DNA of 59,071 bases from an uncultured Coriobacteriia bacterium (GCA_903831865.1 CAIKZH010000014.1:1-59071); one strand, 5' to 3'. Positions 4,060 to 31,739 are shown, counted from the first letter of the stretch. A program made the numbers and translations. Notes: generated by a model not told the origin, from the letters alone.

Positions 4060-4112
4060 CCGGATCGCGCGCGGTCGCTACTGCACTCGCGGATGGTGAG
4101 GAGGACAAGGAC

Positions 4113-5225: not shown

Positions 5226-5326
5226 GCGGCCGCCTGTCGGTCGCGCGCCGGCATGCCGCACCCGAGAGGCGTGTTGCCTTAGAATCGCTCAGGACGGGCC
5301 GATGCCCGGGGACGAAAGGAGAAGCT

Positions 5327-6301: not shown

Positions 6302-6322
6302 GGTCCGCCCCTCCTCCCTGTC

Positions 6323-7576: not shown

Positions 7577-7738
7577 GATGTCCCCCTGAGACCCGGTTCT
7601 CGATGCGCCAGCCGGCGTACGATGGCTTCGGCGGGCGGCCGTACCAGTTCCTACCCCCCGGCAGGTCCCGGGTACTACGACAGACACCGCCGCGACGGTG
7701 GTTATCGCGGCGGTGTCATCGGAACAGTCCAGTGCGAG

Positions 7739-8422
7739 CTACACGGCGTCGGGGCGCACACCGAAGGTCGCGCGCAGCTGCTTCTCGCCGCCGAGTTCGG
7801 AGAGGATGAGGACCTCGTCACCCGCGGACAGGACGGTCTCGCCGCGCGGGACGGTGATCTCGCCCTTCGAGATGATCGCCATGATGTGCGCAGTCTTGGG
7901 CAAGTCGAGGGCGGCGATCGTGCGACCCACCGCCTTCGCGTCGACCGGCAGCGTGAGCTCGTCGATGACCATGTTCTCGGCCGACAGCCTCATGAGTGTG
8001 ATGACGTCCCCGAGGCTGACCTCGTTATCGATGAGGCTGTAGATGATGTTCGCGGTGGATACGGCGACGTCGACGCCCCAATCCTTGGTGAACAGCCACT
8101 CGTTCTTGGGGTGGTTCGTGCGCGCGAACACCATGGGCACCGAATGCGTGGTCTTCGCCAGGAAGCTCACGACCAGGTTGTCCTCGTCGTCGCCGGTCAG
8201 GGCCGCCACGAGGTCGGTCTGACCCGCGGCCGCCCGGTCGAGCACGCTCGGCTCGCATCCGTCGCCGCGCACGACACGGACGTCGGGCATCTTGGCCGCG
8301 ACGTACTCGGCGCGGTCCAGCCGCACCTCCACCATGGTCACCTTGTGGTCGGCGCGCAGCTTCTCAGCGAGGTAGACGCCTGATTTGCCTGCTCCGACGA
8401 TCAGTACGTTCATCGTCGCCAC
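7739..8422 (-). CDS. trkA: Trk/Ktr potassium uptake NAD-binding subunit
   Basis: NVLIVGAGKSGVYLAEKL Rossmann motif, TrkA-N plus TrkA-C layout. Abuts the paralog upstream. Confidence 0.85.
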   Translation of the reverse strand: MATMNVLIVGAGKSGVYLAEKLRADHKVTMVEVRLDRAEYVAAKMPDVRVVRGDGCEPSVLDRAAAGQTDLVAALTGDDEDNLVVSFLAKTTHSVPMVFARTNHPKNEWLFTKDWGVDVAVSTANIIYSLIDNEVSLGDVITLMRLSAENMVIDELTLPVDAKAVGRTIAALDLPKTAHIMAIISKGEITVPRGETVLSAGDEVLILSELGGEKQLRATFGVRPDAV

Positions 8423-9088
8423 CTATTCCTTGAACCCGAGCAGGCGCTCGAGCTTCTCGGCGCTCTCGCGCAGCACGTTGATGTAGAGGGTGTCGTCTTT
8501 CTCGAACGTCGTGCCCGGCTCCGGGAGGATCCCCTTGCCGTGGCGCAGGATCGTGCCCACCGCGATCTCTCCCGGGACCGCCAGGTCTGCGATCCGGTGA
8601 CCGATGAGACCGGCGGGCAGGGGCACCTCCATCATCTCGACGTCCGCATCGCCGTACTGGTACTCGCTGTGCAGATCCGCGTGCGTGACCATGTCGAGCA
8701 GCCGGGTGCTCGTCCAGGTGACCGACGCGATGGTCGAGATACCCAGGCCGCGATAGATCTCGGCGCGACGAGGGTCGTAGATGCGGGCGATGACCTGAGG
8801 GACGCGGTAGTGCTCCTTGGCGGTGCGCGCCGCCACGATGTTGCTGTTGTCGCCCGAGGTGACCGCGGCGAAGCAGTCGGCGTCGCGGATGCCCGCGTCC
8901 TCGAGCACGTCACGGTCGAAGACCGTGCCGATGAACTTCTGGCCCATGATCTCCTCGGACGGGTCGCAATCGAACACGAGCGGGTCCTGGTCGATCACGG
9001 ACACGGTGTGCCCTTCGAACTCCAGCATCCGGGCGAGATAGCGGCCTACACGGCCGTATCCGCCGATGACCACGTGCAACCGGTGCAT
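8423..9088 (-). CDS. trkA: Trk/Ktr potassium uptake NAD-binding subunit (second paralog)
   Basis: VVIGGYGRVGRYLARML Rossmann motif, TrkA-N/TrkA-C layout. Its stop is immediately adjacent to the start of the next gene. Confidence 0.85.
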   Translation of the reverse strand: MHRLHVVIGGYGRVGRYLARMLEFEGHTVSVIDQDPLVFDCDPSEEIMGQKFIGTVFDRDVLEDAGIRDADCFAAVTSGDNSNIVAARTAKEHYRVPQVIARIYDPRRAEIYRGLGISTIASVTWTSTRLLDMVTHADLHSEYQYGDADVEMMEVPLPAGLIGHRIADLAVPGEIAVGTILRHGKGILPEPGTTFEKDDTLYINVLRESAEKLERLLGFKE

Positions 9089-9105
9089 CGCGCGTCACCT
9101 CGCTT

Positions 9106-11985
9106 TCATGAGAGGTCGGAGGCCGCTTGGGGCGCCTTGTCGATCTTGCCTATCTTGAGGTCCGGCTTGTGCCATGTCATGCGCAGGAAGAACTTGCGTA
9201 TCTCGTCGGCTATGAGGAGGACCGGCGTGAACAGTGCCATGACCGCCCACTCCTGCCATGTCAGCGCCGCCGTGCTGAACACCCTCTGAAGCACAGGTAT
9301 GTACATCAGAGCCGCAAGGCCCAGCAGCTCTCCGCCGACGCCCCACAGCCGCAGCTTGTTGGAGAAGAACCCGACCGCGAGGATCGACTGGCGGTGGGTC
9401 CGCATCGCGAAGCCGTTGCCGACCTGCGCCATGACGATACCAGTGAGCGTCATCGTCGTGGCGATCATGTAGATACCGGTGGCCGGTGCCGAACCGAGCG
9501 GGGCGTGCCCGAGCGCCGCCATCGCGGCCCAGTTCCCGAAATGCCAGCCGTGCTCCACGTACGTGTAGAAGAAGCCGAAGAGGCCGATCGCGGCCGCGAG
9601 GGGACCCAGGAACATGTACGCCTTGATGACCATGCCGAAGGTCAGGATCGGCTCCCCGGGACGCTTCGGCGGGCGCCGCATGACGCCCGGCTCCGGCTGC
9701 TCGAGTCCGAGAGCCAGCGCGGGGACCTGATCGGTCAGGAGGTCGATGGTGAGTATCTGCAGCAGCGTGAGCGGCAGTGGGATGCCGAGGAAGATCATGG
9801 CGAGGAACGGGAACATCTCGGCTACGTTGGAGACTTGGAAGTAGGTCAGGAAGCGCCGGATGTTGTCGAAGATCGCACGCCCTTCCTCCACCGCGGCGAC
9901 GATGCTCGCGAAGTTGTCGTCGGTGAGGATCATGTCGGCGGCCTCGCGGGCCACATCGGTGCCTGCCTTGCCCATCGCGATGCCGATGTCCGCGGCCTTC
10001 AGGGCAGGGGCGTCGTTGACGCCATCGCCAGTCATCGCGACGACCTCGCCCATCGACTGCAGCGCCTGTGCGATTCGCATCTTGTGCTCGGGCACGACGC
10101 GGGCGAAGACGACCTCGCCGGTCAGCGCTTCCTTGAGGGCGAAGTCGGCCATGCCCTCAAGGTCATTGCCGGTGATGACGCGGGCCTCCTCGCCGTGGCA
10201 GATGCCGATCTTGCGGGCGATGGCCTCCGCGGTCAGTCCGTAGTCGCCGGTGATCATGACAACGCGGATTCCCGCCGTGTGGCACTCCGCGACCGCGGCG
10301 GTGACCTCCGGACGGGGCGGGTCCTGCATGGCCTCGAGACCGAGCAGCGTGAGGCCGGTCTCGACGGCCGACATCTCCGCGGCGTCTTCGCGAGAATCGA
10401 CATGACGCTGCGCGACGGCGATGACGCGAAGCGCCTGACTCGCCAGGCCGTCGTTCGCCTCGAATGCGGCGCGGCGGTCGCCTTCCGTGATCGGCCGCAC
10501 GCCGGCGCCGTCGCGCACATGCGTGCACAGGTCGATCGTCTCTTTCGGCGCGCCCTTGACGTAGGCGATGAGCTCGCCGGCGACGTCGCATACCACCGTC
10601 ATGCGCTTGCGCGAGGAATCGAAGGGATGTTCGAACCTGCGGGGGCGCTCCTCTTCAAGCGCCTCGATGTCGAAGCCGTCCTTGGCCGCCGCGACCAGCA
10701 TGGCGGCCTCGGTCGGGTCGCCGAGGATCGTCCACAGTCCGCTCTCCTCCTCGGGAGCACGAAGGCGGGCGTTGTTGCACAGCACTGCGGCGGCCAGGCA
10801 CTCCGACAGGCGGGTCTTGTCCTGCCCGGCCACCGGCTTGCCGTGCGCCGAGAACGAGCCGACGGGCGCATACCCGACGCCGTCGACCTCGATCGCGAGC
10901 CCGGGCAGCCACACCTCGCGCACCGTCATCTGGTTCGCAGTGAGGGTGCCGGTCTTGTCGGTGCAGATGACGGTGGTGGAGCCCAGTGTCTCGACGCTCG
11001 ACAGCTTCTTGACCAGCACATTGCGCTTGGCCATCCGCTGCGCGGCCACGGAGAGGGCCATCGTCAGGGTGGGCAGCAGTCCTTCGGGGACGTTGGCCAC
11101 GATGATGCCGATGGCGAACACCGCCGCCGCGAGCCAGTCCATGCCGACGAAGACCTTGCCCAGGATGAAGAAGAACACCCCGAGTACCACCGCGATGAGC
11201 GAGATGAGCTTCGATAGCCGCTCGATGTTCTTCTGCAGCGGTGAGAGCCGGTCGGCGACGCTCTGAGTGAGTCCCGCGATCTTGCCGAACTCCGTGCTCA
11301 TGCCCGTGGCGTACACGACCGCGCGGCCCTGCCCCAGGACCGCGGTGCTGCCGGTGAAGATGAAGCTCTCGACGTCGGTGATCGACGGGGGGTCCGTGCA
11401 GAGCACGTCCGCGCGTCTCATCACGGGGTCGACCTCGCCGGTGAGCGCGGAGTTGTCGACGCGCAGGTCGGCTGCGTAGACGAGTCGGGCGTCGGCGGAG
11501 ATCAGGTCGCCCTCTTCGACGACGAGCAGATCGCCCGGCACCAGGGTCTTCGCCTCGATCTCCTGCATCTGACCGTCGCGGACGACCTTGGCCTTGGGCG
11601 GCAGCATGTTCCGAAGCGCTTCGATGGCCTTCTCGGCGCGGAACTCCTGCACGAAGGCGAAGACCGCGTTGAGCAGGATGACCAGGATGATGGCGAATCC
11701 CAGCGCGGCCTGGTCCGAGGCGAACGAGAGGGCCGAGGCGACCCAGAGAAGGATCGCGAACATGTTGACGAGGTGCGCGCCGAACCGCCGCCACATCGGG
11801 ATCGGCTTCTTGGCGGTGAGGACATTGTCCCCGAAGGCCTCGAGCCGCCTGGCGGCCTCGTCGGCGCTCAGGCCCTTCCGCGAGCTCTGCAGCAGTCCGT
11901 ACGCCGCCTCAGGCGCGACGCCACAAAGATCGGAGGGGCCTGCCATAGCTTCTTCGGGCTCGTCCATAGGTCCTCGTCCCGGCAC
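9106..11985 (-). CDS. Cation-transporting P-type ATPase, type II (Ca2+/Mg2+-like)
   Basis: ICTDKTGTLT phosphorylation site, TGDGVNDAPALK hinge, NVPEGLLPT in TM4, about 10 TM segments. The start could be the internal MDEPEE. Confidence 0.9.
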   Translation of the reverse strand: MPGRGPMDEPEEAMAGPSDLCGVAPEAAYGLLQSSRKGLSADEAARRLEAFGDNVLTAKKPIPMWRRFGAHLVNMFAILLWVASALSFASDQAALGFAIILVILLNAVFAFVQEFRAEKAIEALRNMLPPKAKVVRDGQMQEIEAKTLVPGDLLVVEEGDLISADARLVYAADLRVDNSALTGEVDPVMRRADVLCTDPPSITDVESFIFTGSTAVLGQGRAVVYATGMSTEFGKIAGLTQSVADRLSPLQKNIERLSKLISLIAVVLGVFFFILGKVFVGMDWLAAAVFAIGIIVANVPEGLLPTLTMALSVAAQRMAKRNVLVKKLSSVETLGSTTVICTDKTGTLTANQMTVREVWLPGLAIEVDGVGYAPVGSFSAHGKPVAGQDKTRLSECLAAAVLCNNARLRAPEEESGLWTILGDPTEAAMLVAAAKDGFDIEALEEERPRRFEHPFDSSRKRMTVVCDVAGELIAYVKGAPKETIDLCTHVRDGAGVRPITEGDRRAAFEANDGLASQALRVIAVAQRHVDSREDAAEMSAVETGLTLLGLEAMQDPPRPEVTAAVAECHTAGIRVVMITGDYGLTAEAIARKIGICHGEEARVITGNDLEGMADFALKEALTGEVVFARVVPEHKMRIAQALQSMGEVVAMTGDGVNDAPALKAADIGIAMGKAGTDVAREAADMILTDDNFASIVAAVEEGRAIFDNIRRFLTYFQVSNVAEMFPFLAMIFLGIPLPLTLLQILTIDLLTDQVPALALGLEQPEPGVMRRPPKRPGEPILTFGMVIKAYMFLGPLAAAIGLFGFFYTYVEHGWHFGNWAAMAALGHAPLGSAPATGIYMIATTMTLTGIVMAQVGNGFAMRTHRQSILAVGFFSNKLRLWGVGGELLGLAALMYIPVLQRVFSTAALTWQEWAVMALFTPVLLIADEIRKFFLRMTWHKPDLKIGKIDKAPQAASDLS

Positions 11986-12114
11986 AGGCCCCGCGCGGTG
12001 CTCAGGGCGACGCCACTACATGAGAGGGAAGGCTACTCCTTAGGCGCTGACGCCGTCGAGAGGAATCCGCCGACCGCGCCCGTTCGCGTCGTGCCCTCTG
12101 GCCGCTCGGCGCCG

Positions 12115-12684
12115 CTACCGCAGCGGGCCTACGCGACTCAGAGGCCAGTAGATGAAGAAGCCCTGACCACGGATGGTGGAGATCGGGACGGGCCCGAACC
12201 AGCGGCTGTCCTCGCTCGAGGTCCGGTTATCTCCCATCATCCACACGTAGCCGGCCGGTATCTTCACAGGCAGCTTCAGTGGGCCGGGGTAGTCGGGCTC
12301 GCCGTGCGTGTACGGCTCTACGAGGGCCTTGCCATCGACCCAGACCCTGCCGTCACGCACGTCCACCGTCTGCCCGCCCACTGCGATGACGCGCTTGATG
12401 AGAGTGGGGACTGTCTTGGTCGGATCGTCGAAGACGGCGATGTCGCCGCGCTCGGGCTGCCTCAGCCGGTAGATGACCTTGTTCGCCAGCAGGTGGTCGC
12501 CGAGTTGGATCGTCGGCAGCATGGAGCCCGTGGGCACCTCATACGGCTCGACCACGTAGGTGCGGAGAGCGAACGCGATGACGACTGCCACCGCCAGCGT
12601 CACGACGAACTCCAGAAGCTGACCTGCTGCGCTCCCGCGGTCCTTGACGCCGGCCTTCTGCGGGGTGCGATCGTAGTCGTTCAT
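12115..12684 (-). CDS. lepB: Signal peptidase I
   Basis: SPase I boxes GSMLPT (Ser), KRVIAVGGQ (Lys) and GDNRTSSEDSR, with an N-terminal TM helix. Confidence 0.9.
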   Translation of the reverse strand: MNDYDRTPQKAGVKDRGSAAGQLLEFVVTLAVAVVIAFALRTYVVEPYEVPTGSMLPTIQLGDHLLANKVIYRLRQPERGDIAVFDDPTKTVPTLIKRVIAVGGQTVDVRDGRVWVDGKALVEPYTHGEPDYPGPLKLPVKIPAGYVWMMGDNRTSSEDSRWFGPVPISTIRGQGFFIYWPLSRVGPLR

Positions 12685-12908
12685 GGTCCTCCGTAACCGG
12701 TGGCCTCGTCATGATCAGACGCTCGAGCATGGTAGCAGCACGTGTCACGCCGGTTCGCGACGAGTGATGGGGTCGGGCGCCGTTGCGAGACATCGGCGAC
12801 GGCCCAATTCGGGTCCGGAGCGTTCCTTGTGGTTCCTCCCCGCCTGATCGGGAAATATGCTCAGCAGTCACTCAGGCAGGTGTCGCCACGGGGGAGGGCT
12901 CACATCTC

Positions 12909-13436
12909 ATGTCGCAGACTCGGTCCCGCTCGACGATGACAGCACGCCGCACCAGCACGCTGGTGGCGATCGGCGCGGTGCTGCTGGCCACGATGGTGGC
13001 GGGATGCACCATGGCATCGAGCCAGAGAATGCGGACGGTCGGTTCGACCCGGCCCGCCGCGATGTCCGGCTCCACCGGGCGCGTGGTGCCCGCGTCCAAC
13101 GTGCAGACGTGCCTCACGTGTGACCAGGGCAAGATGCCGGCGACGGTCGAGGGCCACGCGACGCTGGAGAACGGTGTGCAGGTCCTGAGTATCGCGATCC
13201 GGGGCGGCACCTACGTACCCAACACGTTCGCGGTGAAGGCCGGCGTGCCGGTCAAGGTCGTGTTCGCGGGGAGGGCGAAGGGATGCCTGGCGAAGCCGAC
13301 GTTCAAGTCACTCGGCAAGCAGGTGGACCTCACGGCCACTGACACGGGGTCGGTCGTGCTCGGCCCGCTCGCACCGGGCACGTACAAGTTCACGTGCGCC
13401 ATGGGCATGAACGGCGGGACCATCACCGCGAACTAG
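12909..13436 (+). CDS. Cupredoxin-like lipoprotein (putative copper-binding)
   Basis: ATG 12909 lies after GGGGGAGGG. Signal peptide with lipobox (LLATMVAGC). C-terminal PGTYKFTCAMGMNGG motif as in cupredoxin_1-type domains found next to Cu ATPases. Confidence 0.7.
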   Translation: MSQTRSRSTMTARRTSTLVAIGAVLLATMVAGCTMASSQRMRTVGSTRPAAMSGSTGRVVPASNVQTCLTCDQGKMPATVEGHATLENGVQVLSIAIRGGTYVPNTFAVKAGVPVKVVFAGRAKGCLAKPTFKSLGKQVDLTATDTGSVVLGPLAPGTYKFTCAMGMNGGTITAN

Positions 13437-17516: not shown

Positions 17517-17894
17517 TTAGGCGCGCTCCACCTCGGTCACGACGGTCGTCTTGATCTCGCGCACCAGGTTCTCGAGGGCGGGGATCACGACTGGCCGGAT
17601 CGTGCCCGCCACGAGCACGTACATGATGTCGTCCCCGACCACCAGCTCGCCCTCGTTCACCCACGCGTAGATCGCCTCGACGCCTTCGGTCCCGCTCGCA
17701 TCGCGAACGATCTCATCCAGTCGTGCGTGGTCGACCTCCAGCCTCATGCCGCTCACGATCGCGCCCGCGCGCGAGGTCCCGCGGACCACACCGTTGTGCA
17801 CCAGCATCATGCCGAGGCGATCGGGAGACGTCTCTCGTTTCGCCCTCGCGATCCAGGCCGCCACGTCGACTGAGTCGCACACCTCATAGCCCAT
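17517..17894 (-). CDS. MoaE-fold-like small protein (weak call) / hypothetical
   Basis: The GMMLVHNGVVRG...LEV...IYAWVNEGELVVGDDIMYVLVAG...REIK layout resembles molybdopterin synthase large subunit topology. Pattern-level only. Confidence 0.4.
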   Translation of the reverse strand: MGYEVCDSVDVAAWIARAKRETSPDRLGMMLVHNGVVRGTSRAGAIVSGMRLEVDHARLDEIVRDASGTEGVEAIYAWVNEGELVVGDDIMYVLVAGTIRPVVIPALENLVREIKTTVVTEVERA

Positions 17895-18022: not shown

Positions 18023-18055
18023 TTGCACTAGTCCATGCGCATATGCGAATATACT
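18023..18055 (+). promoter_or_regulatory. Candidate promoter/operator upstream of the first arsR-family gene
   Basis: An AT-rich island, unusual for this window, contains TTGCAC (18023-18028), the 10-bp perfect palindrome CGCATATGCG (18038-18047) and TATACT (18050-18055). The 21-nt hexamer spacing is not ideal. Confidence 0.3.
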
Positions 18056-18091: not shown

Positions 18092-18409
18092 ATGGACCCG
18101 GACTTCTACTGCATGCACTCCGCGCTGTGCAAGACGCTGGCGAACGAGAAGCGCCAGATGATCCTGGACGCGCTGCGCTGTGGCGAGTCGAGCGTGACCG
18201 ACCTCGTGGAGCGCACCGGCATCTCCCAGCCCAACATCTCGCAGCACCTCTCTCTGATGCGCGCGAACGGGGTCGTGCGGTCGCGACGCGACGGCACGCG
18301 CGTGCTCTACGAGATCAGCAACCCCAAGCTCATCCAGGCGTTCGACCTCATCACCGAGGTCATGCGGGAAACGATCGAGGAACGCTCGCGTGGCGCGAGG
18401 AGCGCCTGA
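18092..18409 (+). CDS. ArsR/SmtB-family metalloregulator
   Basis: Winged-HTH core LANEKRQMILDALRCGESSVTDLVERTGISQPNISQHLSLMRANGVV. ATG 18092 lies after GGGAGG; the track ORF begins at 18035. Confidence 0.85.
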   Translation: MDPDFYCMHSALCKTLANEKRQMILDALRCGESSVTDLVERTGISQPNISQHLSLMRANGVVRSRRDGTRVLYEISNPKLIQAFDLITEVMRETIEERSRGARSA

Positions 18410-18438
18410 GCTCGGTAGCGACAAGGAGGAAGAAGCCA

Positions 18439-18975
18439 GTGACACCGGATGTTGCACAGGCGATGGAACAGGTGAACGCGGTCGCGTCAGCGCCCGACGA
18501 CCGCCGCAAGAAGATCTCGATGGTGGTCATGAGCGGCGACATGGACAAGCTCTTCGGTGCCTTCATCATCGGCACCGGCGCGGCGGCCATGGGCATGGAA
18601 GTGACCATGTTCTTCACGTTCTGGGGGCTGCGCGCGCTCAAGCGCGCGGATGCGAAGACCGGGACGACCTTCTTCGGCAAGATGATGGGTCTGATGTACG
18701 GCGGCGGCATCGAGAAGGCCAGCCCGTCCAAGTTCTCCTTCGGCGGCATGGGCCGCTGGATGTTCGGCAAGATGATGGGGGCGCACAACGTGGCCACACT
18801 TCCACAGTTGCGTGACCTCGCCATCGACCTGGGCATCAACATGTACGGCTGCCAGATGTCCATGGACGTCATGGAGATCCCGCAGGAATCGTTCGTCAAG
18901 GGCGTCAAGGACCCGGTGGGCGTCGGCTTCTTCATCGCCGAGGCGCAGGAGTCCCAGGTCACCCTTTTCATCTAG
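18439..18975 (+). CDS. DsrE2-type (DsrE/DsrF-like, DrsE_2) protein
   Basis: GTG 18439 lies after AAGGAGGAAG. ISMVVMSGDMDKLFGAFIIGTGAAAMGMEVTMFFTFWGL...GCQMSMDVM are typical of DsrE2-like proteins found beside TusA. Confidence 0.75.
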   Translation: MTPDVAQAMEQVNAVASAPDDRRKKISMVVMSGDMDKLFGAFIIGTGAAAMGMEVTMFFTFWGLRALKRADAKTGTTFFGKMMGLMYGGGIEKASPSKFSFGGMGRWMFGKMMGAHNVATLPQLRDLAIDLGINMYGCQMSMDVMEIPQESFVKGVKDPVGVGFFIAEAQESQVTLFI

Positions 18976-19016
18976 CCGTCGGACGGCGCCGCCGCCCACC
19001 ACCCGAGAGAGAGGCT

Positions 19017-19262
19017 TTGACGATGAGCGACACGAAACCCGATCTGGAGCTCGACCTGCGCGGTCTGCTGTGCCCGATGCCGATGGTCAAGGTGTCACAG
19101 AACATCAGCAAGGTGCCCGTCGGCGGCACGGTGCGAGCCGTCGCGACCGACGCGGGCTCCATGGCCGATATCCCCGCGTGGGCGAAGTCGACCGGCAACG
19201 AGGTCGTGCAGGCGGAGAAGGTCGGCAGCGAGTACGTGTTCCTCGTCAAGCGTGTGAAGTAG
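19017..19262 (+). CDS. tusA: TusA/SirA-family sulfur carrier protein
   Basis: LDLRGLLCPMPMVKV carries the conserved CP-x-P cysteine motif. The size is about 80 aa. Confidence 0.85.
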   Translation: MTMSDTKPDLELDLRGLLCPMPMVKVSQNISKVPVGGTVRAVATDAGSMADIPAWAKSTGNEVVQAEKVGSEYVFLVKRVK

Positions 19263-19272
19263 AGGACGGGAC

Positions 19273-19995
19273 ATGGACCTGTTCTCCTTCCTGGTCTCCG
19301 GGATCGGCGTCTACGTGGCGCTTGTCGTGTTCACCCTGGGCATGGCGTGGCGCGTATGGCAGTGGATGCGGACGCCGAAGTCGCCCGTCCGCCTCGGCCT
19401 CTTCCCCAAGCCGAAGAGCGGGCTGGGGAGGTTCGGCAAGCTGCTGAAAGACACCTTCATCGCCCCGCAATCGGTCGAGCAGGCCGCGCCTCTCATGGCG
19501 GCCGCCTACGCGTTCCATCTCGCGGCGCTCGGCGCCTTCGTCGGGCACCTGCGTCTCGTCCACGAGTTCACGCCGCTCGTGAGCATCCTCGGTGTGGAAG
19601 GCATGAACACGTTCGCCGCCTGGTCGGGCGGGATCGCGGGCGTGGTCATGCTCCTGGCGATCCTCTTCTGGATCGGACGGCGCACCTCCGGGGCCTACAA
19701 GAACCTCTCGACGCCGGAGGACTTCCTACTGCTTGGGCTGCTCCTTGGCGTCGTGCTGCTCGGTGACCATCTGCGGTTCGTGGGGGGACTCCACGCGGCG
19801 ACCTACGAGGCATGGTTCGCGAGCCTGGTGGCGTTGCGGCCTGCGTTCCCGCCGGCGCTCGCGGCCTCGGCCACGAGATGGGCGCTCGACTGGCACATGC
19901 TGTTCGTGGACGCGTTCCTGATCTACTTCCCGTTCAGCAAGCTCACCCACGCGATCGGCGCGTTCACGGGCAACCTCGTGCGGAGCTCTGACTGA
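19273..19995 (+). CDS. NarI/DsrM/HdrE-like membrane di-heme cytochrome b subunit
   Basis: About 5-6 TM helices with conserved His (FHLAALGAFVGHLRLV, LGDHLRF, FSKLTHAIG), as in the nitrate reductase gamma-like family. Its stop is 1 nt before the next start. Confidence 0.75.
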   Translation: MDLFSFLVSGIGVYVALVVFTLGMAWRVWQWMRTPKSPVRLGLFPKPKSGLGRFGKLLKDTFIAPQSVEQAAPLMAAAYAFHLAALGAFVGHLRLVHEFTPLVSILGVEGMNTFAAWSGGIAGVVMLLAILFWIGRRTSGAYKNLSTPEDFLLLGLLLGVVLLGDHLRFVGGLHAATYEAWFASLVALRPAFPPALAASATRWALDWHMLFVDAFLIYFPFSKLTHAIGAFTGNLVRSSD

Positions 19996-19996
19996 T

Positions 19997-21310
19997 ATGG
20001 AGAAGCAGGAGTTGGAAACCATCATCGGCACCCTCGGCAAGAGGATGAACCGGCAGCTCAAGGAGTACCTGGACGTCTGCGTGCGCTGCGCGATCTGCAA
20101 GGACGCGTGCCACCAGTACGTGGCCACCCAGGACATGACCTACCTGCCGGCTCACCGGGCGGAGCTGGTGCGCGCGGTCTATCGCAAGTACTTCACGAAG
20201 GCGGGCCAGTTCATGCCGGCGGTCTACGAGGCCCGCGACCCCGACGAGCACCTGCTCGACGACCTCTACAGGTCGACCTACGCCTGCACGGGCTGTCGCC
20301 GGTGCATGTACTACTGCCCGTTCTCGATCGACACGCAGTGGGTGATCTCCGCGGCGAAGGCCATGCTCATCGCAGCTGGTCGCGGCAACGAGATGCTCGG
20401 CCAGCTCGCGGACGCGGCTCTGTTCAAGGGCGACAACATCGAGATGTTCCGAGACAACCTGGTCGAGGGCTTCCGGGAGATCGAGACCCAGGTGCGGGAC
20501 ATCACGAAGAACCCGGAGGCTGAGATCCCGGTGGACCGCCAGGGCGCCGACATGCTGTACGTCGCGCTCGCTGGTTCGCATTCGATCCTGCCGGCGGCGA
20601 TCATCTTCAACGAGGCGAAGGCGAGCTGGACGCTCTCCATGTTCGAGGCGGCCAACTACGGCTTCTTCTTCGGGGACCCCGACAAGGCCAGGCTCATCGC
20701 CAAGCGCTTCATGGACGAAGCCAAACGCCTCGGCGTGAAGGAGGTCGTGATCACCGAGTGCGGCCACGCCTACCGCGTCGCTGAGCTGTTCTACGAGGCA
20801 TGGGCGAAGGAGAGGATGCCGTTCAAGGTCGTGCATATCCTCGAAGTCATCGATCGCTACGTGAAGGAAGGGCGCATCAAGGTCGACCCACGCGGCATCA
20901 GGGAGAAGGTCACCTACCACGACCCCTGCCAGATCGGCCGCAACGGCGGCATCTACGAGCAGCCGCGGGACATCGTGAAGGCCATCGCTCCGGACTTCGT
21001 CGACATGACGCCCAATCGCGAGAAGCAGTGGTGCTGCGGCGGTGGCGGTGGGATCGTCGCGATGGAGGAGTTCAACGAGGTGCGCCTCAAGAGCGGCGAC
21101 ATGAAAGTCGAGCAGATCAAGGCCACAGGCGCGAGCGTGCTCGCGTGCCCGTGCGAGAACTGTCGCCTGCAGATAGGCGAGCTCAACGAGGTCCACGACC
21201 TCGGATTGCGAGTGGTTCCGGTCATGGACCTTGTGGTCGAGGCGATGGGCTTCGGGCACGCGGCCGGCACCACCGGCGACGAGCGCGACGCCGCCGAGGC
21301 GGTCGTCTGA
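19997..21310 (+). CDS. HdrD/DsrK-like Fe-S oxidoreductase (2x[4Fe-4S] plus CCG domains)
   Basis: CVRCAICKDAC and CTGCRRCMYYCP cluster motifs. CCG-domain pattern YHDPC...WCCGGGGG...CPCENC. Confidence 0.85.
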   Translation: MEKQELETIIGTLGKRMNRQLKEYLDVCVRCAICKDACHQYVATQDMTYLPAHRAELVRAVYRKYFTKAGQFMPAVYEARDPDEHLLDDLYRSTYACTGCRRCMYYCPFSIDTQWVISAAKAMLIAAGRGNEMLGQLADAALFKGDNIEMFRDNLVEGFREIETQVRDITKNPEAEIPVDRQGADMLYVALAGSHSILPAAIIFNEAKASWTLSMFEAANYGFFFGDPDKARLIAKRFMDEAKRLGVKEVVITECGHAYRVAELFYEAWAKERMPFKVVHILEVIDRYVKEGRIKVDPRGIREKVTYHDPCQIGRNGGIYEQPRDIVKAIAPDFVDMTPNREKQWCCGGGGGIVAMEEFNEVRLKSGDMKVEQIKATGASVLACPCENCRLQIGELNEVHDLGLRVVPVMDLVVEAMGFGHAAGTTGDERDAAEAVV

Positions 21311-21319
21311 AGGTCGGTG

Positions 21320-21351
21320 GTGAGTGCCGGTCCGTCGGGGCCGGCACTCAC
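21320..21351 (+). terminator. GC-rich hairpin downstream of the HdrD/DsrK-like gene
   Basis: GTGAGTGCCGG (21320-21330) is the perfect reverse complement of CCGGCACTCAC (21341-21351), 10 nt after the stop. No U-tract follows. Confidence 0.5.
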
Positions 21352-21397
21352 ATCTCCGGTTGACGGATGTCTGCGCCCGCGGTACCGTGAGGCCACA

Positions 21398-21425: not shown

Positions 21426-21791
21426 ATGCGAAAGGTGCTGTTGCAAGTGGCTTCACGGCTCGCTCACGGGACCCGGACCGCCGCGCGAACCGCGTCGGGT
21501 TCGAGGCTCGACGCCGCGCTCAAGGCGCTCGCGTGCGAGCAGAGGCGCGAGATCATCCGATTGCTCAGTGAGTGCACTCCCGACTTCGACAAGACCTGCT
21601 GCGATGCGGAGGAGTTGTGCGCGTGCAAGCTGGTCGAGCGGCTCGGCCTGGCGCAATCGACAGTCTCTCATCACATGTCGGTCCTGCAGCGTGCCGGACT
21701 TGTGGGTGCACGCAAGGATGGACTTTGGGTGCACTACACGCTCCGCCGCGATGTGCTGCGGGACGTGGCTGAGGCGCTCAAGCACCTGTAG
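21426..21791 (+). CDS. ArsR/SmtB-family metalloregulator (second copy)
   Basis: LACEQRREIIRLL...CACKLVERLGLAQSTVSHHMSVLQRAGLV winged-HTH, plus a Cys-rich stretch (CCDAEELCAC). The start may be a downstream GTG (21447) because the operator-like site abuts the ATG. Confidence 0.85.
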   Translation: MRKVLLQVASRLAHGTRTAARTASGSRLDAALKALACEQRREIIRLLSECTPDFDKTCCDAEELCACKLVERLGLAQSTVSHHMSVLQRAGLVGARKDGLWVHYTLRRDVLRDVAEALKHL

Positions 21792-21833
21792 GCGGTCGGC
21801 GCGGCTTCGCGAGGGCCGCTTCTTTCAGCATCG

Positions 21834-21857
21834 CTAGTTCGACGACTATCGATATAG
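21834..21857 (+). promoter_or_regulatory. Operator-like imperfect inverted repeat, copy 2 (CTAGTTCGA-N6-TCGATATAG)
   Basis: The half-sites match 7 of 9 positions as an inverted repeat. It lies 24 nt upstream of the Trx-like gene start, followed by GGAGGA. Confidence 0.5.
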
Positions 21858-21880
21858 GCGTCACGAGATGGAGGAAGCAG

Positions 21881-22123
21881 ATGGTCATCAAGGTGCTCGG
21901 ATCGGGATGCGCGAACTGTCAGAAGCTTGAGGCCCTGGCGGCAAAGGTGGTGTCTGACCTTGGCCTCGACGCCGACGTCGTCAAGGTCACCGACATCGGC
22001 CAGATCATGGCGTACGGCGTGATGTCGACTCCGGCTCTCGTGATCGACGAGGAGCTCAAGGTCGCTGGCCGTGTCCCGACCTACGACGAGGTCGTTGCAC
22101 TGCTGCAGCGGTCCGCCCACTAG
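21881..22123 (+). CDS. Small thioredoxin-fold protein (redox-active disulfide protein 2 / Thioredoxin_3-like)
   Basis: MVIKVLGSGCANCQKLE... has a CxxC directly after beta1. About 80 aa. This type is typically found beside PF03773-type permeases. Confidence 0.85.
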   Translation: MVIKVLGSGCANCQKLEALAAKVVSDLGLDADVVKVTDIGQIMAYGVMSTPALVIDEELKVAGRVPTYDEVVALLQRSAH

Positions 22124-22151
22124 CAGTCAGGTCGCCGACTGGAGGCGTTCG

Positions 22152-23129
22152 ATGGACCCGTTCTACCCCCTGCAGCTGCTCGCGAACTGGATCACCTACA
22201 ACGTGCTCGGGCTTTCTGCGACGAGCAAGCTCGGTGCTTCGCTGGACTTCTTCCTCTTCGACGTGCCGAAGGTGCTGATCCTCCTCGCCGTCGTGATCTT
22301 CTTCGTCGCAGTCATCCGGTCGTTCTTCCCCCCGGAGAAGACGAAGAAGCTCCTGTCGCACTCCCGGCTCTACGGGGGCAACATCGCGGCGGCGCTGCTT
22401 GGCATCGTGACGCCGTTCTGCTCCTGCTCCGCCGTCCCTCTCTTCATCGGTTTCGTCGAGAGCGGCGTACCCCTGGGCGTGACGTTCTCATTCCTTGTGG
22501 CCAGTCCGATGATCAACGAGGTGGCGGTGATCCTGCTGCTCGGGCTGTTCGGGTGGCAGATCGCCGCACTCTACGTGGTCTCCGGTCTCCTGATCGCGAT
22601 CACGAGCGGGATCATCATCGGGAAGCTCGGGCTCGAGAGCTGGGTCGAGGACTACGTCTACGAGATCCGCATGGGCGAGGCGGGCAAGCTGCCCGAACAG
22701 ACGTGGCGAGAGCGCCTCGCCTACGCTTTGGGCTACGTGAAGGAGATCGTCGGCAAGGTGTGGCCGTATGTCGTGGTCGGCATCGGCATCGGCGCCGTCA
22801 TGCACGGCTACGTGCCGAACGACTTCCTCGTGAAGTACGCGGGTCCGGGAAACCCCTTGGCTGTGCCGCTGGCGGTGCTCATCGGCGTGCCGCTGTACAG
22901 CAATGCGGCCGGGGTCGTGCCGATCGTGGGCGTGCTGATCGCGAAGGGCGTCTCCGTGGGCACGGCGCTCGCCTTCATGATGGCCGTGGTCGGTCTGTCC
23001 CTTCCCGAGGCGATCATCCTTCGCAAGGTGCTCAAGCCCAAGCTCATCGCCCTGTACTTCGGGATCAACGCGGTCGGCATCGTCGCGATCGGCTACCTGT
23101 TCAACCTGGTCATCCCGCTCGCGAGATAG
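22152..23129 (+). CDS. PF03773-type (ArsP/YraQ-like) permease
   Basis: ATG 22152 lies after GGAGG. Polytopic protein with the TPFCSCSAVPLFIGF motif characteristic of this permease family. Confidence 0.8.
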   Translation: MDPFYPLQLLANWITYNVLGLSATSKLGASLDFFLFDVPKVLILLAVVIFFVAVIRSFFPPEKTKKLLSHSRLYGGNIAAALLGIVTPFCSCSAVPLFIGFVESGVPLGVTFSFLVASPMINEVAVILLLGLFGWQIAALYVVSGLLIAITSGIIIGKLGLESWVEDYVYEIRMGEAGKLPEQTWRERLAYALGYVKEIVGKVWPYVVVGIGIGAVMHGYVPNDFLVKYAGPGNPLAVPLAVLIGVPLYSNAAGVVPIVGVLIAKGVSVGTALAFMMAVVGLSLPEAIILRKVLKPKLIALYFGINAVGIVAIGYLFNLVIPLAR

Positions 23130-24766: not shown

Positions 24767-25195
24767 ATGGTTCCAGAAGAGCAGGAGACGTGCTGCCGAG
24801 GCGCCGGCGCCATGCACGGACCGGAGCGCCCATGCTGCCGCCGCGCGGGAGGCGGTGGCGGCGGCGCCCTGGTCGAGCCCGCGGCCCTCGCCGCGCTGCT
24901 CAATCGCGGTGCGCACGGCTACGACGTGCGTCGTGCGATCAGTGAACTGACCGGTGGCGAGCTGGAGGTCGACGCCGGGGGGTTGTACCGAGTGCTGAGG
25001 CGCCTCGAGGCCGAGGGCTTCGTCGTGTCGGCTTGGAGCGAGGGAGATTCCGGCCCGCAGCGCAGGGACTACGAGATCACGTCTGAAGGCAGGGAGCTCG
25101 CGGAGGACTGGCTCTCGCACTTGCGGGAGCGGCAGCGAGTGGCGGGCCTGCTGGCGGATGTCCTGTCCGCGGCCCTCGCGCCGAGCAAGGTCTAG
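24767..25195 (+). CDS. PadR-family transcriptional regulator with Cys/Gly-rich N-terminal extension
   Basis: ATG 24767 lies after GAGGAG. The HGYDVRRAISELTGGELEVDAGGLYRVLRRLEAEGFV winged helix is preceded by ETCCRGAGAMHGPERPCCRRAGGGGGG. Confidence 0.85.
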   Translation: MVPEEQETCCRGAGAMHGPERPCCRRAGGGGGGALVEPAALAALLNRGAHGYDVRRAISELTGGELEVDAGGLYRVLRRLEAEGFVVSAWSEGDSGPQRRDYEITSEGRELAEDWLSHLRERQRVAGLLADVLSAALAPSKV

Positions 25196-25216
25196 GACTC
25201 GAGAGGAGAAGACACG

Positions 25217-25270
25217 ATGCCCAGATATAACGGAACGGGTCCCAGTCTCGGGCGCGGGTGCGCGAGATGA
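25217..25270 (+). CDS. 17-codon mini-ORF (MPRYNGTGPSLGRGCAR), translationally coupled to the NifX-like gene
   Basis: ATG 25217 lies 6 nt after GAGAGGAGAAG. Its TGA (25268-25270) overlaps the ATG at 25267 of the next gene as ATGA. The N-terminal MPR-x-N-G-TGP pattern resembles (from memory) DUF5320 small proteins. Confidence 0.35.
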   Translation: MPRYNGTGPSLGRGCAR

Positions 25271-25629
25271 CGATCGCAGTGTCCTCGCTCGGGCCGACAC
25301 TCGACGATCGGGTGGACGAGAGGTTTGGCCGCGCCGCCTACCTGCTGATCGTCGACGAGGGCACGCTTGATGTCCACGCGGTCGACAACAGCGCGAATCG
25401 AGATGCGCTGCAGGGGTCGGGTCTCGGCGCGGCCGAGATCACGAGCGAACACGGAGCCACCGCCGTGATCACCGGCCACCTCGGCCCAAAGGCTTTCAGC
25501 GCCCTGCAGCGCTGCGGCATCAGCGGCTACGACGGCACCGGGATGACGGTGCGCGAGGCCGTGGAGAAACAGAGAACGGGCCAGCTCGTCCGGCTTGCCG
25601 AAGGCGAGTCACACGCTGGTATGGACTGA
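25267..25629 (+). CDS. NifX/NifB-C-terminal-like (dinitrogenase FeMo-cofactor-binding domain family) protein 1
   Basis: MTIAVSS...RFGRAAYLLIVD...AVITGHLGPKAFSALQRCGISGY fits the Nitro_FeMo-Co domain pattern. The track ORF begins at GTG 25258. Confidence 0.8.
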   Translation: MTIAVSSLGPTLDDRVDERFGRAAYLLIVDEGTLDVHAVDNSANRDALQGSGLGAAEITSEHGATAVITGHLGPKAFSALQRCGISGYDGTGMTVREAVEKQRTGQLVRLAEGESHAGMD

Positions 25630-25655
25630 CCGGAGCAGCAAGGCGATGGGAGCCA

Positions 25656-26036
25656 ATGATGCCTGACAGCATGGTGCTGGCGGTGCCCTCGATGGGCGAA
25701 GGCGGACTCGAAGCGGAGCGGTCGGCGCACTTCGGTCACTGCGACTGTTTCACGCTCGTCGACGTGGCCGATGGTGAGATCGGGGCGGTACGGGTCGTGG
25801 CGAATCCTCCGCACGAGGAAGGTGGGTGTTTGCGGCCGGTCAACCTGCTCGCGTCACATGGCGTGAACGCCCTGATCGCCGCCGGGATGGGCGCGCGGCC
25901 CCTGGCCGGATTCAACGACGCCGGCATCACGGTCTACTTCGAGACCGAGACGCCGGGCATCGGCGACGCGGTGCGGCGTGTGCTCGCCGGCTCCGTGGAG
26001 AAGATGGACGCCCGGCACGTCTGCGGCGGCCACTAG
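25656..26036 (+). CDS. NifX/NifB-C-terminal-like protein 2
   Basis: MVLAVPS...HFGHCDCFTLVDV...GVNALIAAGMGARPLAGFNDAGITVY follows the same domain pattern. Confidence 0.8.
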   Translation: MMPDSMVLAVPSMGEGGLEAERSAHFGHCDCFTLVDVADGEIGAVRVVANPPHEEGGCLRPVNLLASHGVNALIAAGMGARPLAGFNDAGITVYFETETPGIGDAVRRVLAGSVEKMDARHVCGGH

Positions 26037-26038
26037 GC

Positions 26039-26956
26039 GTGTCCGCCGAGTCGCAGAAGGGCGACGGCTCGCCCTTCACGTTGGCCGTCGCCTCGGGCAA
26101 GGGCGGCACCGGCAAGACGCTCGTGGCAACCAACATGGCCGCCTTGTCGTCAGCGGCCGGTCTGAGGGTCGTGCTCGTCGACTGCGACGTGGAGGCGCCC
26201 AACGACCACCTGTTCCTGCGCCGGGCCGAGGAGTCGGCATCGGCCGTAGACGTGCTCGTCGCCGACGTTGACGCGTCGCAGTGCGTCGCGTGCGGTGCGT
26301 GCCGGGACGCGTGCGCGTTCGGCGCGATACGCATCCTCGGCGACTCGGCGGTGGTCTTCGACGACCTGTGCCACGGATGCGGGCTCTGCACCGACGTGTG
26401 CCCGTCCGGCGTGATCACCGAGGTGCCCCGACGGGTGGGCGAGGTCGTCACGGGACTCACGGCAGAAGCGGGCGCGCTCATGCTCGTGACGGGCAGGCTC
26501 GACGTCGGGCAGGTGAAGTCCCCTTCGGTGATCCGGGCCACTCGGGCCGCGGCTGCCGCCTGTGCTGCCGACCTCGTGGTACTCGACGCCCCACCGGGCG
26601 TCGCCTGTTCTGCGGTCGCCGCGGTGCGCGGTGCCGACGCGCTGCTGCTGGTCGCCGAGCCGACGGTCTTCGGGCTCCACGACCTGGAACTCAGTCTTCG
26701 ATTGGGCGGCGAGCTACGGCTGCCGATGGGCGTCGTCGTCAATCGGTCGCCGGCGACAGGTGGCGAGGCGGTCGACCAGCTGTGCGAGAGGCGGGGCGTC
26801 CCGGTGCTCGCGCACATCCCCTTCGACAGGCGCATCGCCGAGACCTACGCACGCGGGGAGCTGGTCGCGCACGCCTTGCCCGATGTCGGTGCGCTGATCG
26901 CATCGCTTCCTGGCGCCATGCGCCTGGCGGCTTCGCCGTCGGCGGCGCCGCGATGA
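26039..26956 (+). CDS. MinD/ParA-superfamily P-loop ATPase with inserted 2x[4Fe-4S] ferredoxin domain (COG1149-type), copy 1
   Basis: GTG 26039 lies 2 nt after the upstream stop. Walker A ASGKGGTGKT. CVACGACRDAC and CHGCGLCTDVCP are inserted after the P-loop. Confidence 0.85.
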   Translation: MSAESQKGDGSPFTLAVASGKGGTGKTLVATNMAALSSAAGLRVVLVDCDVEAPNDHLFLRRAEESASAVDVLVADVDASQCVACGACRDACAFGAIRILGDSAVVFDDLCHGCGLCTDVCPSGVITEVPRRVGEVVTGLTAEAGALMLVTGRLDVGQVKSPSVIRATRAAAAACAADLVVLDAPPGVACSAVAAVRGADALLLVAEPTVFGLHDLELSLRLGGELRLPMGVVVNRSPATGGEAVDQLCERRGVPVLAHIPFDRRIAETYARGELVAHALPDVGALIASLPGAMRLAASPSAAPR

Positions 26957-30549: not shown

Positions 30550-30915
30550 TCAGTACCGCAGGAAGTTCTCGCACTCCAGCATCGACTGGACGACCTGGCC
30601 GGCGCCGCCGATGAAGCACCCATCCAGCAGCTGGTCTTCGGCGATGCCGCGAGTCGTCATGCAGGGCGAGCACACCATGATGCGATGACCGGCCGCCAGC
30701 ACTGCCGCCATCAGGTCTGCGACCGGGGCCAGCCCGTCGGCGGCAGCCGCCTCGGCCCCGCCGGGCAGGGCGAGTCGTACGCCCTCGCCTTGAAGGATCA
30801 GCACCGGCTCCACGTCCATCGCCATGGCTCCGTTGGCCAGCATGAAGGGGATGGTCGCCAGTTCGGGATCGTCCTGCGCATGTGTGACCACGAAGCCCAC
30901 CTTCTTGCGAGTCAC
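30550..30915 (-). CDS. DsrE/DsrF-family (COG2044-like) small sulfur-relay/redox protein
   Basis: GTG 30915 lies 6 nt after AAAGGAG. KVGFVVTHAQDDPELATIPFMLANGAMAMD...IMVCSPCM fits the DsrE-like fold pattern. Confidence 0.7.
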   Translation of the reverse strand: MTRKKVGFVVTHAQDDPELATIPFMLANGAMAMDVEPVLILQGEGVRLALPGGAEAAAADGLAPVADLMAAVLAAGHRIMVCSPCMTTRGIAEDQLLDGCFIGGAGQVVQSMLECENFLRY

Positions 30916-31092
30916 GAGGGGCTCCTTTCTGCGCTGTCGGCGCGGGTCAAGCACGGCTCGAAAGGAAAGCCCCCGGGGCGGTGCACCGTTCCGGGGGCAG
31001 GGCACGCGGAAGAGGGGGGTGCTCCGCATGCACCCAGTCAGTACCCAACTCTCGCGCGTCTTCTCGTCGGAATCACGAGTGTCACTCGGCCT

Positions 31093-31605
31093 TCACGACC
31101 CCGCGACCGGGCTGGGGCCTTCCTGCGCCCTGAGGAGTCCCAGGACGGCGTCCAGCTTCCCGGAGTCGCCATCGGTCAGCAGCGTCAGTATCCTGTCGAG
31201 CTTCTCGTCCTCGATCCTCGAGAGCTGACGCTGCACGTTCTCGATGTCCGTCTTCGAGTCGACATTGGTCTTGAAGTCCGCATTCGCCTGGAAGCGGTCG
31301 CGCTCGGCGGACCGGTTCTGACTCATCATGATGATCGGCGCCGCGTAGGCGGCCTGCGTGGAGAAGAGCAGGTTGAGCAGGATGAACGGATACGGGTCCC
31401 ACCGGTGCGAGACCACCTCGACGACGTTCAGGATCATCCAGGCCACCACGAAGAGCGACTGCACGATGATGAACGTCCAGGAGCCCATGCCGGTGGCGAC
31501 CGCGTCGGCCACCCGCTGCCCGATGGTCATGTGGTCCCGGTGCGCGGCGCTCCAGTCCTTGTCGTGATGCCACGTTTCCACCTGGACTGACTTCTTCTTT
31601 GGCAT
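31093..31605 (-). CDS. DUF1003-family membrane protein
   Basis: ATG 31605 lies after GGAGGAG. GSWTFIIVQSLFVVAWMILN...WDPYPFILLNLLFSTQAAYAAPIIMMSQNR is the typical DUF1003 core. Confidence 0.75.
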   Translation of the reverse strand: MPKKKSVQVETWHHDKDWSAAHRDHMTIGQRVADAVATGMGSWTFIIVQSLFVVAWMILNVVEVVSHRWDPYPFILLNLLFSTQAAYAAPIIMMSQNRSAERDRFQANADFKTNVDSKTDIENVQRQLSRIEDEKLDRILTLLTDGDSGKLDAVLGLLRAQEGPSPVAGS

Positions 31606-31739
31606 GCGGCGAACTCCTCCCGGCTCGGCTTCGGACCAGTGTACGTCGGCGATCCGACCCTCGCGCGACGGGGCCCCGGAGCGCGGCAAGGGCGCCTCCA
31701 TCCGCGTGGGTGGGGGCGCCCTTCGCTACCGACATGAAT

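Follow-up and report, generated by a model that had tools for sequence, protein, structure and literature searches.

The stretch of DNA analyzed here (GCA_903831865.1 CAIKZH010000014.1:1-59071; 59,071 nt, hereafter the window) comes from an uncultured Coriobacteriia bacterium and carries, at positions 18092-21310, a five-gene cassette in which tusA, for a sulfur carrier, and dsrE2, for a candidate sulfur carrier, stand beside genes for a NarI-like membrane cytochrome b and a DsrK-like iron-sulfur protein, headed by a regulator gene of the ArsR family. Most likely, this unit encodes a DsrC-independent reductase of carrier-bound sulfane sulfur. That the five genes constitute a single inducible operon, whose product is related to the DsrMK core of the complex used in sulfate respiration but does not depend on DsrC, is a proposal to which we give about even chances. 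Enzymes of the DsrMK/HdrDE type are the meeting point of cytoplasmic sulfur chemistry and the membrane. To our knowledge, DsrC and CoM-S-S-CoB are the only known substrates of such enzymes; a clade bound to TusA/DsrE2 would, if true, add a third substrate class. Full-text searches of the literature yielded no description of a TusA/DsrE2-DsrMK-like cassette.

One genome per species was scanned and 80 loci were kept, in which the proteins of the window were then sought by tblastn. At all 21 loci where the DsrK-like protein was at least 41% identical and upstream DNA was available, dsrE2, tusA, and the narI-like gene lay directly upstream, with the gene order permuted at one of them. Four more members of the clade were found on truncated contigs. 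None of the 55 loci with identities of 37% or less had adjacent carrier genes (at one of them, dsrE2-tusA lies at a distance of 2 kb on the opposite strand). In this respect the cassette differs from DsrMK: it always stands beside tusA and dsrE2, whereas the true dsrMK loci in the sample never do. The 21 loci came from Actinomycetota, Desulfobacterales and other 'delta' metagenome-assembled genomes (MAGs), a Solidesulfovibrio magneticus MAG, Spirochaetota, Anaerolineae, Eisenbacteria, and a Pseudomonadota MAG, i.e. from five or more phyla in all. Conservation of the dsrE2-tusA linkage in relatives, which a first-pass annotation of the window had suggested as a check, thus held across phyla at every locus with readable upstream DNA. 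Other Anaerosomatales have the five-gene unit with unrelated flanks, and in a Gram-negative MAG the four-gene core (44% identity) is accompanied by a MarR regulator. Across the order Anaerosomatales, to which the host belongs (close homologs are labelled Coriobacteriia or Anaerosomatales), the cassette was present in 72 of 146 species genomes, 53 of 98 high-quality genomes, and 37 of 76 genera. Of 22 cassette genomes, 11 encode DsrC; the other 11, among them all five Actinomycetota, do not. The DNA of the window itself matched freshwater, lake, and peat metagenomes.

DsrMK(JOP) is the menaquinol (menadiol):DsrC-trisulfide oxidoreductase of sulfate and sulfite reducers, and its DsrK subunit has a single noncubane CCG cluster and a (G/T)ECGH cysteine that are linked to trisulfide reduction (PMC10861901). 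The same set of features was found in the DsrK-like protein of the cassette (19997-21310, + strand; 437 aa; CCG domain, 5.9e-17; Fer4_8, 2e-09), a putative cytoplasmic catalytic subunit. It has two CxxCxxCxxxC motifs for [4Fe-4S] clusters (Cys 28/31/34/38 and 97/100/103/107), one complete CCG motif of the form C311-x34-CC-x38-CxxC (C311, C346, C347, C386, and C389), and a T-E-C255-G-H sequence corresponding to the (G/T)ECGH cysteine; all of these cysteines were invariant in the alignment of 22 cassette copies. Its membrane partner (19273-19995, + strand; PF02665, 6.6e-15, above cut-off) is a predicted di-heme cytochrome b of the NarI/DsrM/HdrE type, in which H82, H92, H208, and H226 were invariant in 24 of 24 copies, the count needed for two bis-His hemes b. 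On the equivalog model for DsrM, this protein scored 62.7 bits, short of the cut-off of 300.

Among curated models, DsrK was the best match to the DsrK-like protein (299.8 bits), followed by TmcB (233) and HmcF (222). The DsrK model (NCBIfam NF045796, catalytic subunit of DsrMKJOP) has an equivalog cut-off of 400 bits, which the cassette protein did not reach; four bona fide DsrK representatives scored 418-701 bits. An exhaustive search of 1.84 billion representatives returned 6197 relatives, whose identities stepped from 57% to 44% and then straight to about 35%. For phylogenetic placement, tree representatives were labelled by the curated models, four being above the DsrK cut-off and the others DsrK-like or HmcF/TmcB-like. 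In the IQ-TREE analysis of 62 rows, the cassette proteins formed one clade (support 100/99) that was sister (93/86) to the clade with all proteins above the DsrK cut-off and did not fall inside it. HmcF/TmcB-like proteins were sister to these two clades together, and TfrB/HdrD-like representatives lay outside the 59-row group of all DsrK-, Hmc/Tmc-, and cassette-type proteins. The placement relative to DsrK, HdrD, and TmcB that the first-pass annotation had called for is therefore that of a separate clade next to DsrK, with HmcF/TmcB-like proteins next out and HdrD-like proteins beyond. To judge from motifs and tree, the pair would work like DsrMK, yet it is not DsrK by score, tree, or partner. 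Among solved structures, no DsrK or HdrD chain matched the DsrK-like protein at E < 1e-5; only 9ojn, a 1042-aa 'iron-sulfur-binding reductase', was matched, in its CCG part.

Two further groups in the wider family were noted. A 661-aa natural fusion of NarI-like and DsrK-like parts (L012:7001-8986) belongs to the cassette clade; no recognizable tusA or dsrE2 is nearby, small open reading frames without a Pfam match precede it, and a small multiheme-like protein follows. Separately, DsrK/HmcF-like proteins from sulfur-oxidizing Pseudomonadota (Lamprocystis purpurea, Thiothrix, Sedimenticola, and Woeseiaceae) formed a clade of their own (100/99) outside both the DsrK and the Hmc/Tmc-like clades, and the representative of this clade scored equally low on all three curated models (loci L042, L046, L048, L050, L057, L065, L074, L075, and L079, with the HdrD-like matches at around position 6001).

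The window is contig C14 of a 2.16-Mb assembly of 192 contigs that is estimated to be 96.5% complete (G000). The observation of the first-pass annotation that the window has no dsrAB, dsrC, apr, sat, or hdrABC extends to this whole genome. Profile searches of G000 gave no match to DsrC (PF04358), no match anywhere to the NIR_SIR sulfite reductase domain (PF01077), and nothing above noise for AprA; ATP sulfurylase (Sat), hdrABC, and a YeeE/YedE sulfur importer were not found in it either. Canonical DsrC, DsrAB, or HdrABC partners encoded elsewhere in the genome, which would have offered another explanation for the pair, were thus not found. Since neither DsrC nor a sulfite reductase domain was found in G000, DsrC cannot be the substrate in this organism. 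The TusA, DrsE_2, and NarI-family genes of the operon are the sole copies of their families in the genome. The only other strong CCG protein, and the sole one with two CCG domains, is a fusion of the HdrB/C type, encoded in a cluster with glutamate synthase genes and glnA, and it was rejected as a candidate for an hdrABC system.

This HdrB-like/HdrC-like fusion (contig C39, L008:6861-8183; neighbors within 3801-13225) is preceded by genes for a PdtaS-type kinase and an ANTAR response regulator and followed immediately by split genes for glutamate synthase (GATase_2, Glu_synthase, and GXGXG) and by glnA. As a CCG protein, it may feed electrons into a glutamate synthase of the archaeal type. A third, weak CCG match was located on contig C29.

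The two carriers of the cassette belong to the expected families but score below the cut-offs of the equivalog models. TusA (19017-19262, + strand, with an alternative start at 19023; PF01206, 2.5e-20, 72.5 bits vs. a cut-off of 28.6) has a CPMP motif, and Cys17 within this CPxP motif was invariant among cassette copies, as were D43, G45, D49, and W53. On the equivalog model for E. coli-type TusA it scored 42.5 of the 78 bits required. The DsrE2-type protein, a sulfur-carrier candidate of the DrsE_2 family (18460-18975, + strand; PF13686, 2e-43, 148.5 bits), reached 78.7 bits on the DsrE2 equivalog model (NF047629), below its cut-off of 210. Its Cys130 was invariant in 25 of 25 cassette copies and aligned with a cysteine of the solved DsrE-like proteins 2qs7 and 3pnx.

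Docking of the DsrK-like protein with TusA, each given as a 22-row alignment, yielded a score of 0.67, compared with 0.01 for the best of three controls. Of 80 solved complexes, 58 attained that mark, as did 2 of 110 mismatched pairs, a calibration that is only rough for the alignments made here. The runs shared at least 81% of contacts, and the predicted local distance difference test (pLDDT) value of the partner was at least 85. The model places TusA on the DsrK-like subunit with Cys17 in the interface, which comprises residues 16-18 and 43-57 on the side of TusA and residues 133-161, 191-195, 217-221, 355, and 357 on the side of the DsrK-like protein, the last two just past the CCGGGGG stretch. 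An interface loop, L191-A-G-x-H195 (His195 in 25 of 25 copies), and K144 (24 of 25) are conserved in the cassette clade; at these positions of the modelled partner site, DsrK and Hmc/Tmc-like proteins carry acidic or other residues. No solved TusA-CCG complex was found among the structures, so the model is unlikely to echo a structure already solved. Absence of DsrC, gene linkage, and the docking model agree in pointing to TusA/DsrE2, rather than DsrC, as the partner of the DsrM/DsrK-like pair, as the first-pass annotation had supposed.

Set against known systems, the cassette has the architecture and chemistry of DsrMK and HdrDE with a new, obligatory pair of protein partners. With DsrMK it shares a di-heme NarI-type cytochrome b and a cytoplasmic subunit with two [4Fe-4S] motifs, one CCG motif, and a (G/T)ECGH sequence (PMC10861901), as well as the proximity in model score and tree described above; it differs by that same score, by its position outside the DsrK clade, by the lack of DsrC and DsrAB in G000, and by the clade-specific L-A-G-x-H loop. 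HdrDE is a methanophenazine:CoM-S-S-CoB heterodisulfide reductase, and the HmcEF and TmcBC modules are known from sulfate reducers. These systems, too, combine a membrane b-type cytochrome with a CCG protein and perform thiol/disulfide chemistry at a noncubane cluster, but HdrD has two noncubane clusters where the cassette protein has one CCG motif, and periplasmic cytochrome c partners are not encoded in the cassette. Side-by-side relays of TusA and a DsrE2-type protein with a conserved cysteine occur in the YTD cluster (yedE-tusA-dsrE2-chp2-chp1) of sulfur disproportionators (PMC9751629) and in the rhd-tusA-dsrE2 and dsrE3A-dsrE2B-tusA clusters of sulfur oxidizers (PMC4175335, PMC3397948). 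There, the relay is accompanied by a YedE transporter and hypothetical proteins, by rhodanese, or by sHdr, and none of these clusters has been described with a DsrM/DsrK-like pair.

In the mechanism that we propose, the di-heme cytochrome b would be reduced by a membrane carrier, menaquinol in cells that possess it, and the electrons would then run through both [4Fe-4S] clusters of the DsrK-like subunit to its noncubane CCG cluster and TECGH cysteine. TusA would dock at this subunit with its persulfide-carrying Cys17, having been loaded by DsrE2 (Cys130) or being joined to it in an intermolecular per- or trisulfide; the latter species would stand in for the two-cysteine arm of DsrC at DsrK. 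The bound zero-valent sulfur would be reduced and leave as sulfide, with regeneration of the carriers. The data show the gene content, the motifs, the clade, the strict synteny, the lack of Dsr partners, RNA-library contigs across every junction, and a docking model with controls; from these we infer the substrate, the direction of the reaction (reductase or oxidase), the electron donor, and the regulatory signal. Physiologically, the cassette most likely serves to turn over or remove sulfane sulfur within the cell, with induction through the local repressor, and it is probably not a self-sufficient sulfur respiration. More tentatively, and with less confidence than we attach to the operon itself, the clade could represent a widespread but unnamed enzyme class, a membrane carrier-protein persulfide/trisulfide reductase for which TusA-S(n)-DsrE2 replaces the DsrC trisulfide as 'protein heterodisulfide'. 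If true, anaerobes without Dsr (Anaerosomatales, Spirochaetota, Anaerolineae, Eisenbacteria, and others) would gain a membrane-wired route from zero-valent sulfur to sulfide. Many abundant anaerobes of peat, lakes, and the subsurface that have no Dsr carry the cassette, and such a route would account for the fate of protein-bound sulfane sulfur and bear on the assembly of the Dsr pathway. The cassette might even be a pre-DsrC state from which DsrMK evolved.

A quinone link of the complex, as in the first-pass annotation, is only conjectural in G000: searches found no MqnA/D and no MenA in this genome, although it keeps a UbiX-UbiA-UbiD cluster (late menaquinone-like steps; contig C16) and a NuoH-like gene. 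In a sister genome, MqnA, two MqnC/E-type radical-SAM genes, a deaminase, and a nucleosidase gene lie between genes that are adjacent in G000. As the orthologs of the flanks are neighbors on one contig of G000 and the genes of the block gave no tblastn match in it, the absence is real and not an assembly gap. The block of the sister genome (L093:1828-11245) also contains Tim44-like and SPFH genes; at the corresponding site of G000 (contig C13, ~24900-26600; L095:7230-8507) there is a gene for a 425-aa Pyr_redox_2 flavoprotein. Throughout the order, MqnA or MenA was detected in 57 of 72 cassette-positive and 58 of 74 cassette-negative genomes, i.e. there was no association. MqnA was missing from 30 of the 72 cassette genomes. 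As a general claim, persistence of the cassette without menaquinone synthesis was rejected, as the MqnA-less genera have MenA above the cut-off; the genomes left without MqnA and MenA are G000 and a few congeners, which keep UbiX-UbiA-UbiD. In a congener, the cassette and a MenA gene above the cut-off share a contig, about 5.6 kb apart (G121:C79:37712-45394).

Several points weigh against a carrier-bound sulfur reductase. The electron donor is one of them: G000 has neither MqnA nor MenA nor the mqn block of its sister, and within the order the cassette is not associated with menaquinone genes. TusA, being the sole TusA of G000, may serve biosynthesis too, and molybdenum cofactor synthesis could be a second task. 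The docking score expresses how confident the model is in its own prediction, and conservation of the interface averages no higher than that elsewhere in the protein (0.68 vs. 0.69). The contigs from RNA libraries described below stem from relatives and are strandless, and carry-over of DNA into them is possible. We know of no biochemistry for any member of the cassette. Finally, quinones were undetected in both cultured relatives (PMC9686372), and it is not evident that menaquinol could reduce a persulfide exergonically, a doubt also voiced for DsrMK (PMC10861901).

The two cultured relatives were identified by exact-sequence look-up. Genome G029 is that of Anaerosoma tenue M08DHB (TusA, MCK8114535; NarI-like protein, MCK8114536; DsrK-like protein, MCK8114537) and G037 that of Parvivirga hydrogeniphila Es71-Z0120 (DsrK-like protein, MCL4078740); both have all five cassette genes. 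A. tenue respires elemental sulfur (S0) and thiosulfate with H2 or formate, whereas P. hydrogeniphila reduces none of sulfate, sulfite, thiosulfate, and sulfur (PMC9686372). The cassette genes are not mentioned in the paper describing these isolates (PMC9686372). Because P. hydrogeniphila possesses every cassette gene and yet respires none of the sulfur compounds offered, the cassette by itself is not sufficient for sulfur respiration, and this result shifts the reading toward turnover or disposal of intracellular sulfane sulfur. With two deposited strains of contrasting sulfur physiology carrying the cassette, the hypothesis is directly testable.

The same physiology bears on the view that the complex is an energy-conserving terminal reductase, the cytoplasmic end of sulfur or thiosulfate respiration. 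Here, electrons from H2 or formate would pass through a membrane hydrogenase and a carrier to the DsrM-/DsrK-like pair and on to TusA-bound sulfur, analogous to DsrMK in Gram-positive sulfite reducers. The position of the cassette clade as closest sister of DsrK agrees with this view, and so does A. tenue, which has the cassette; apart from an FdnGHI-like enzyme, no convincing candidate for a thiosulfate reductase emerged in its description, which also reports a group 1i hydrogenase with an 'unresolved electron acceptor' (PMC9686372). However, it does not explain why P. hydrogeniphila with its complete cassette reduces none of the four compounds or why only some half of the genomes in the order have the cassette. 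A dedicated repressor whose family varies (ArsR or MarR) suits a stress-related or inducible role better than a core respiration, and G000 has no YeeE/YedE importer to supply sulfur. We therefore regard a terminal reductase as unlikely. The reverse reaction, in which the complex would oxidize carrier thiols or persulfides (e.g. forming a TusA-S(n)-DsrE2 bridge) and deliver electrons to the membrane pool, the role assumed for DsrMKJOP in sulfur oxidizers, appears more improbable still. DsrMK-type enzymes run both ways in nature, which speaks for it; TusA and DsrE proteins, moreover, are best known from sulfur oxidizers (PMC3397948), and the first-pass annotation allowed for either direction. 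But no DsrAB, sHdr-type HdrABC, Apr, Sat, or Soe-type partner that could process the product was found, and the hosts are strict anaerobes of peat, lakes, and the subsurface with no evident high-potential acceptor.

Two other explanations were considered. An ordinary extra DsrMK serving DsrC, or a general reductase of low-molecular-weight disulfides, with TusA and DsrE2 feeding sulfur elsewhere (tRNA thiolation or molybdenum cofactor), would be in keeping with the presence of DsrC in half of the 22 cassette genomes, with the single-copy TusA of G000, whose operon is divergent from a MoaE-like gene, and with the generic nature of (G/T)ECGH and CCG chemistry for disulfide reduction. It is nevertheless very improbable: DsrC is missing from G000 and from ten more cassette genomes, the flanking genes (MoaE among them) vary between relatives, and a dsrE2-tusA linkage that is perfect within the clade wherever readable and absent outside is not expected of chance neighbors. 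Least probable of all, if by little, is a role in selenium handling, in which the carriers would bind selenopersulfide or selenotrisulfide and the complex would reduce it to selenide for selenophosphate synthesis. TusA scored 40 bits on the YedF 'selenium metabolism' model vs. 42.5 on that of TusA, both below cut-off, and G000 uses selenocysteine. SelD was above cut-off in 19 of the 22 cassette genomes (G000-G021), nearly always with an in-frame TGA, a count that has no control set and concerns a gene common in such anaerobic lineages with or without the cassette. One Actinomycetota cassette genome (G004) had no SelD match, no selD, selA, or yedE was adjacent to the cassette at any locus examined, and trace selenium assimilation does not need a membrane module of the respiratory type.

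Regulation of the proposed reductase may involve the first gene of the cassette, which encodes an ArsR/SmtB-family repressor (18092-18409, + strand; 105 aa from the ATG at 18092, with an alternative ATG start at 18035; HTH_5, 1.5e-11). The protein scored 83.5 bits on NF033788 (cut-off 55) and 58.5 of 155 bits on the BigR model, and its best solved relative was SqrR (2.1e-12). Like SqrR and BigR, it belongs to the ArsR family, heads a sulfur-related operon, and has a palindrome upstream. It differs from them in having no sensing cysteine pair: Cys41 of SqrR aligns with Asp26, and there is no C-terminal cysteine. Conserved instead is an N-terminal motif, C7-x-H9-x3-C13, with C13 and H9 in 8 of 8 and C7 in 6 of 8 sequences. 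Persulfide sensing of the SqrR/BigR type (C41/C107 pair) was ruled out by these cysteine positions and the BigR score. A perfect 10-bp AT-rich palindrome, CGCATATGCG (18038-18047), about 45-55 nt upstream of the arsR start, is a candidate operator; an AT-rich inverted repeat was present 40-60 nt upstream of arsR at all eight ArsR-type loci, in surroundings of ~67% G+C. These conserved palindromes are the sole basis on which the operon could be called ArsR-controlled, as in the first-pass annotation, and we infer from them that ArsR may repress the operon in response to a signal. Candidate promoters of the sigma-70 type upstream of arsR were absent from the output of a promoter scan, which is uninformative for high-G+C Actinomycetota.

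Four wetland metatranscriptome libraries contained contigs that were 90-99% identical to the operon and together covered all five genes, bridging the arsR/dsrE2, dsrE2/tusA, tusA/narI-like, and narI-like/dsrK-like junctions. These contigs fit one transcript in close relatives; operon parts left uncovered in single runs carry no meaning.

Gene calls and profile matches from the window (G+C ~67%), together with folding, bore out the description of a co-directional five-gene unit that ends in a hairpin. All five genes are on the + strand, separated, in order, by spacers of about 29-50, 41-47, 10, and 1 nt; the first range reflects in part a possible GTG start of the DrsE_2 gene at 18439, which is backed by a ribosome-binding site (AAGGAGG). 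A G+C-rich hairpin (21316-21354, + strand) begins 6 nt 3′ of the last stop codon. Its folding energy was −37.4 kcal/mol (z = −5.05), and none of 200 shuffled sequences folded as well. It is likely a terminator without a U-tract, and because it has no T run it was absent from the output of a consensus terminator scan.

The region around the cassette was described in the first-pass annotation as unusually rich in sulfur-trafficking parts. A DsrE-family gene at 30550-31029 (− strand; PF02635, 66.7 bits) is indeed real, and adjoins a gene for a DUF1003 membrane protein (30550-31701 for both, − strand), but it is unrelated in position to the cassette, whose flanks differ among relatives; no evidence was seen that the wider region is a single sulfur-trafficking unit. 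Upstream, a MoaE-like gene (17517-17894, − strand) is divergent from arsR, a neighbor that is not kept in relatives. Directly downstream (21426-23129), a second ArsR gene is followed by genes for a Thioredoxin_3 'redox-active disulfide protein' (21881-22123) and an ArsP_1 permease (22146-23129), which form a separate small unit of thiol/metalloid type.

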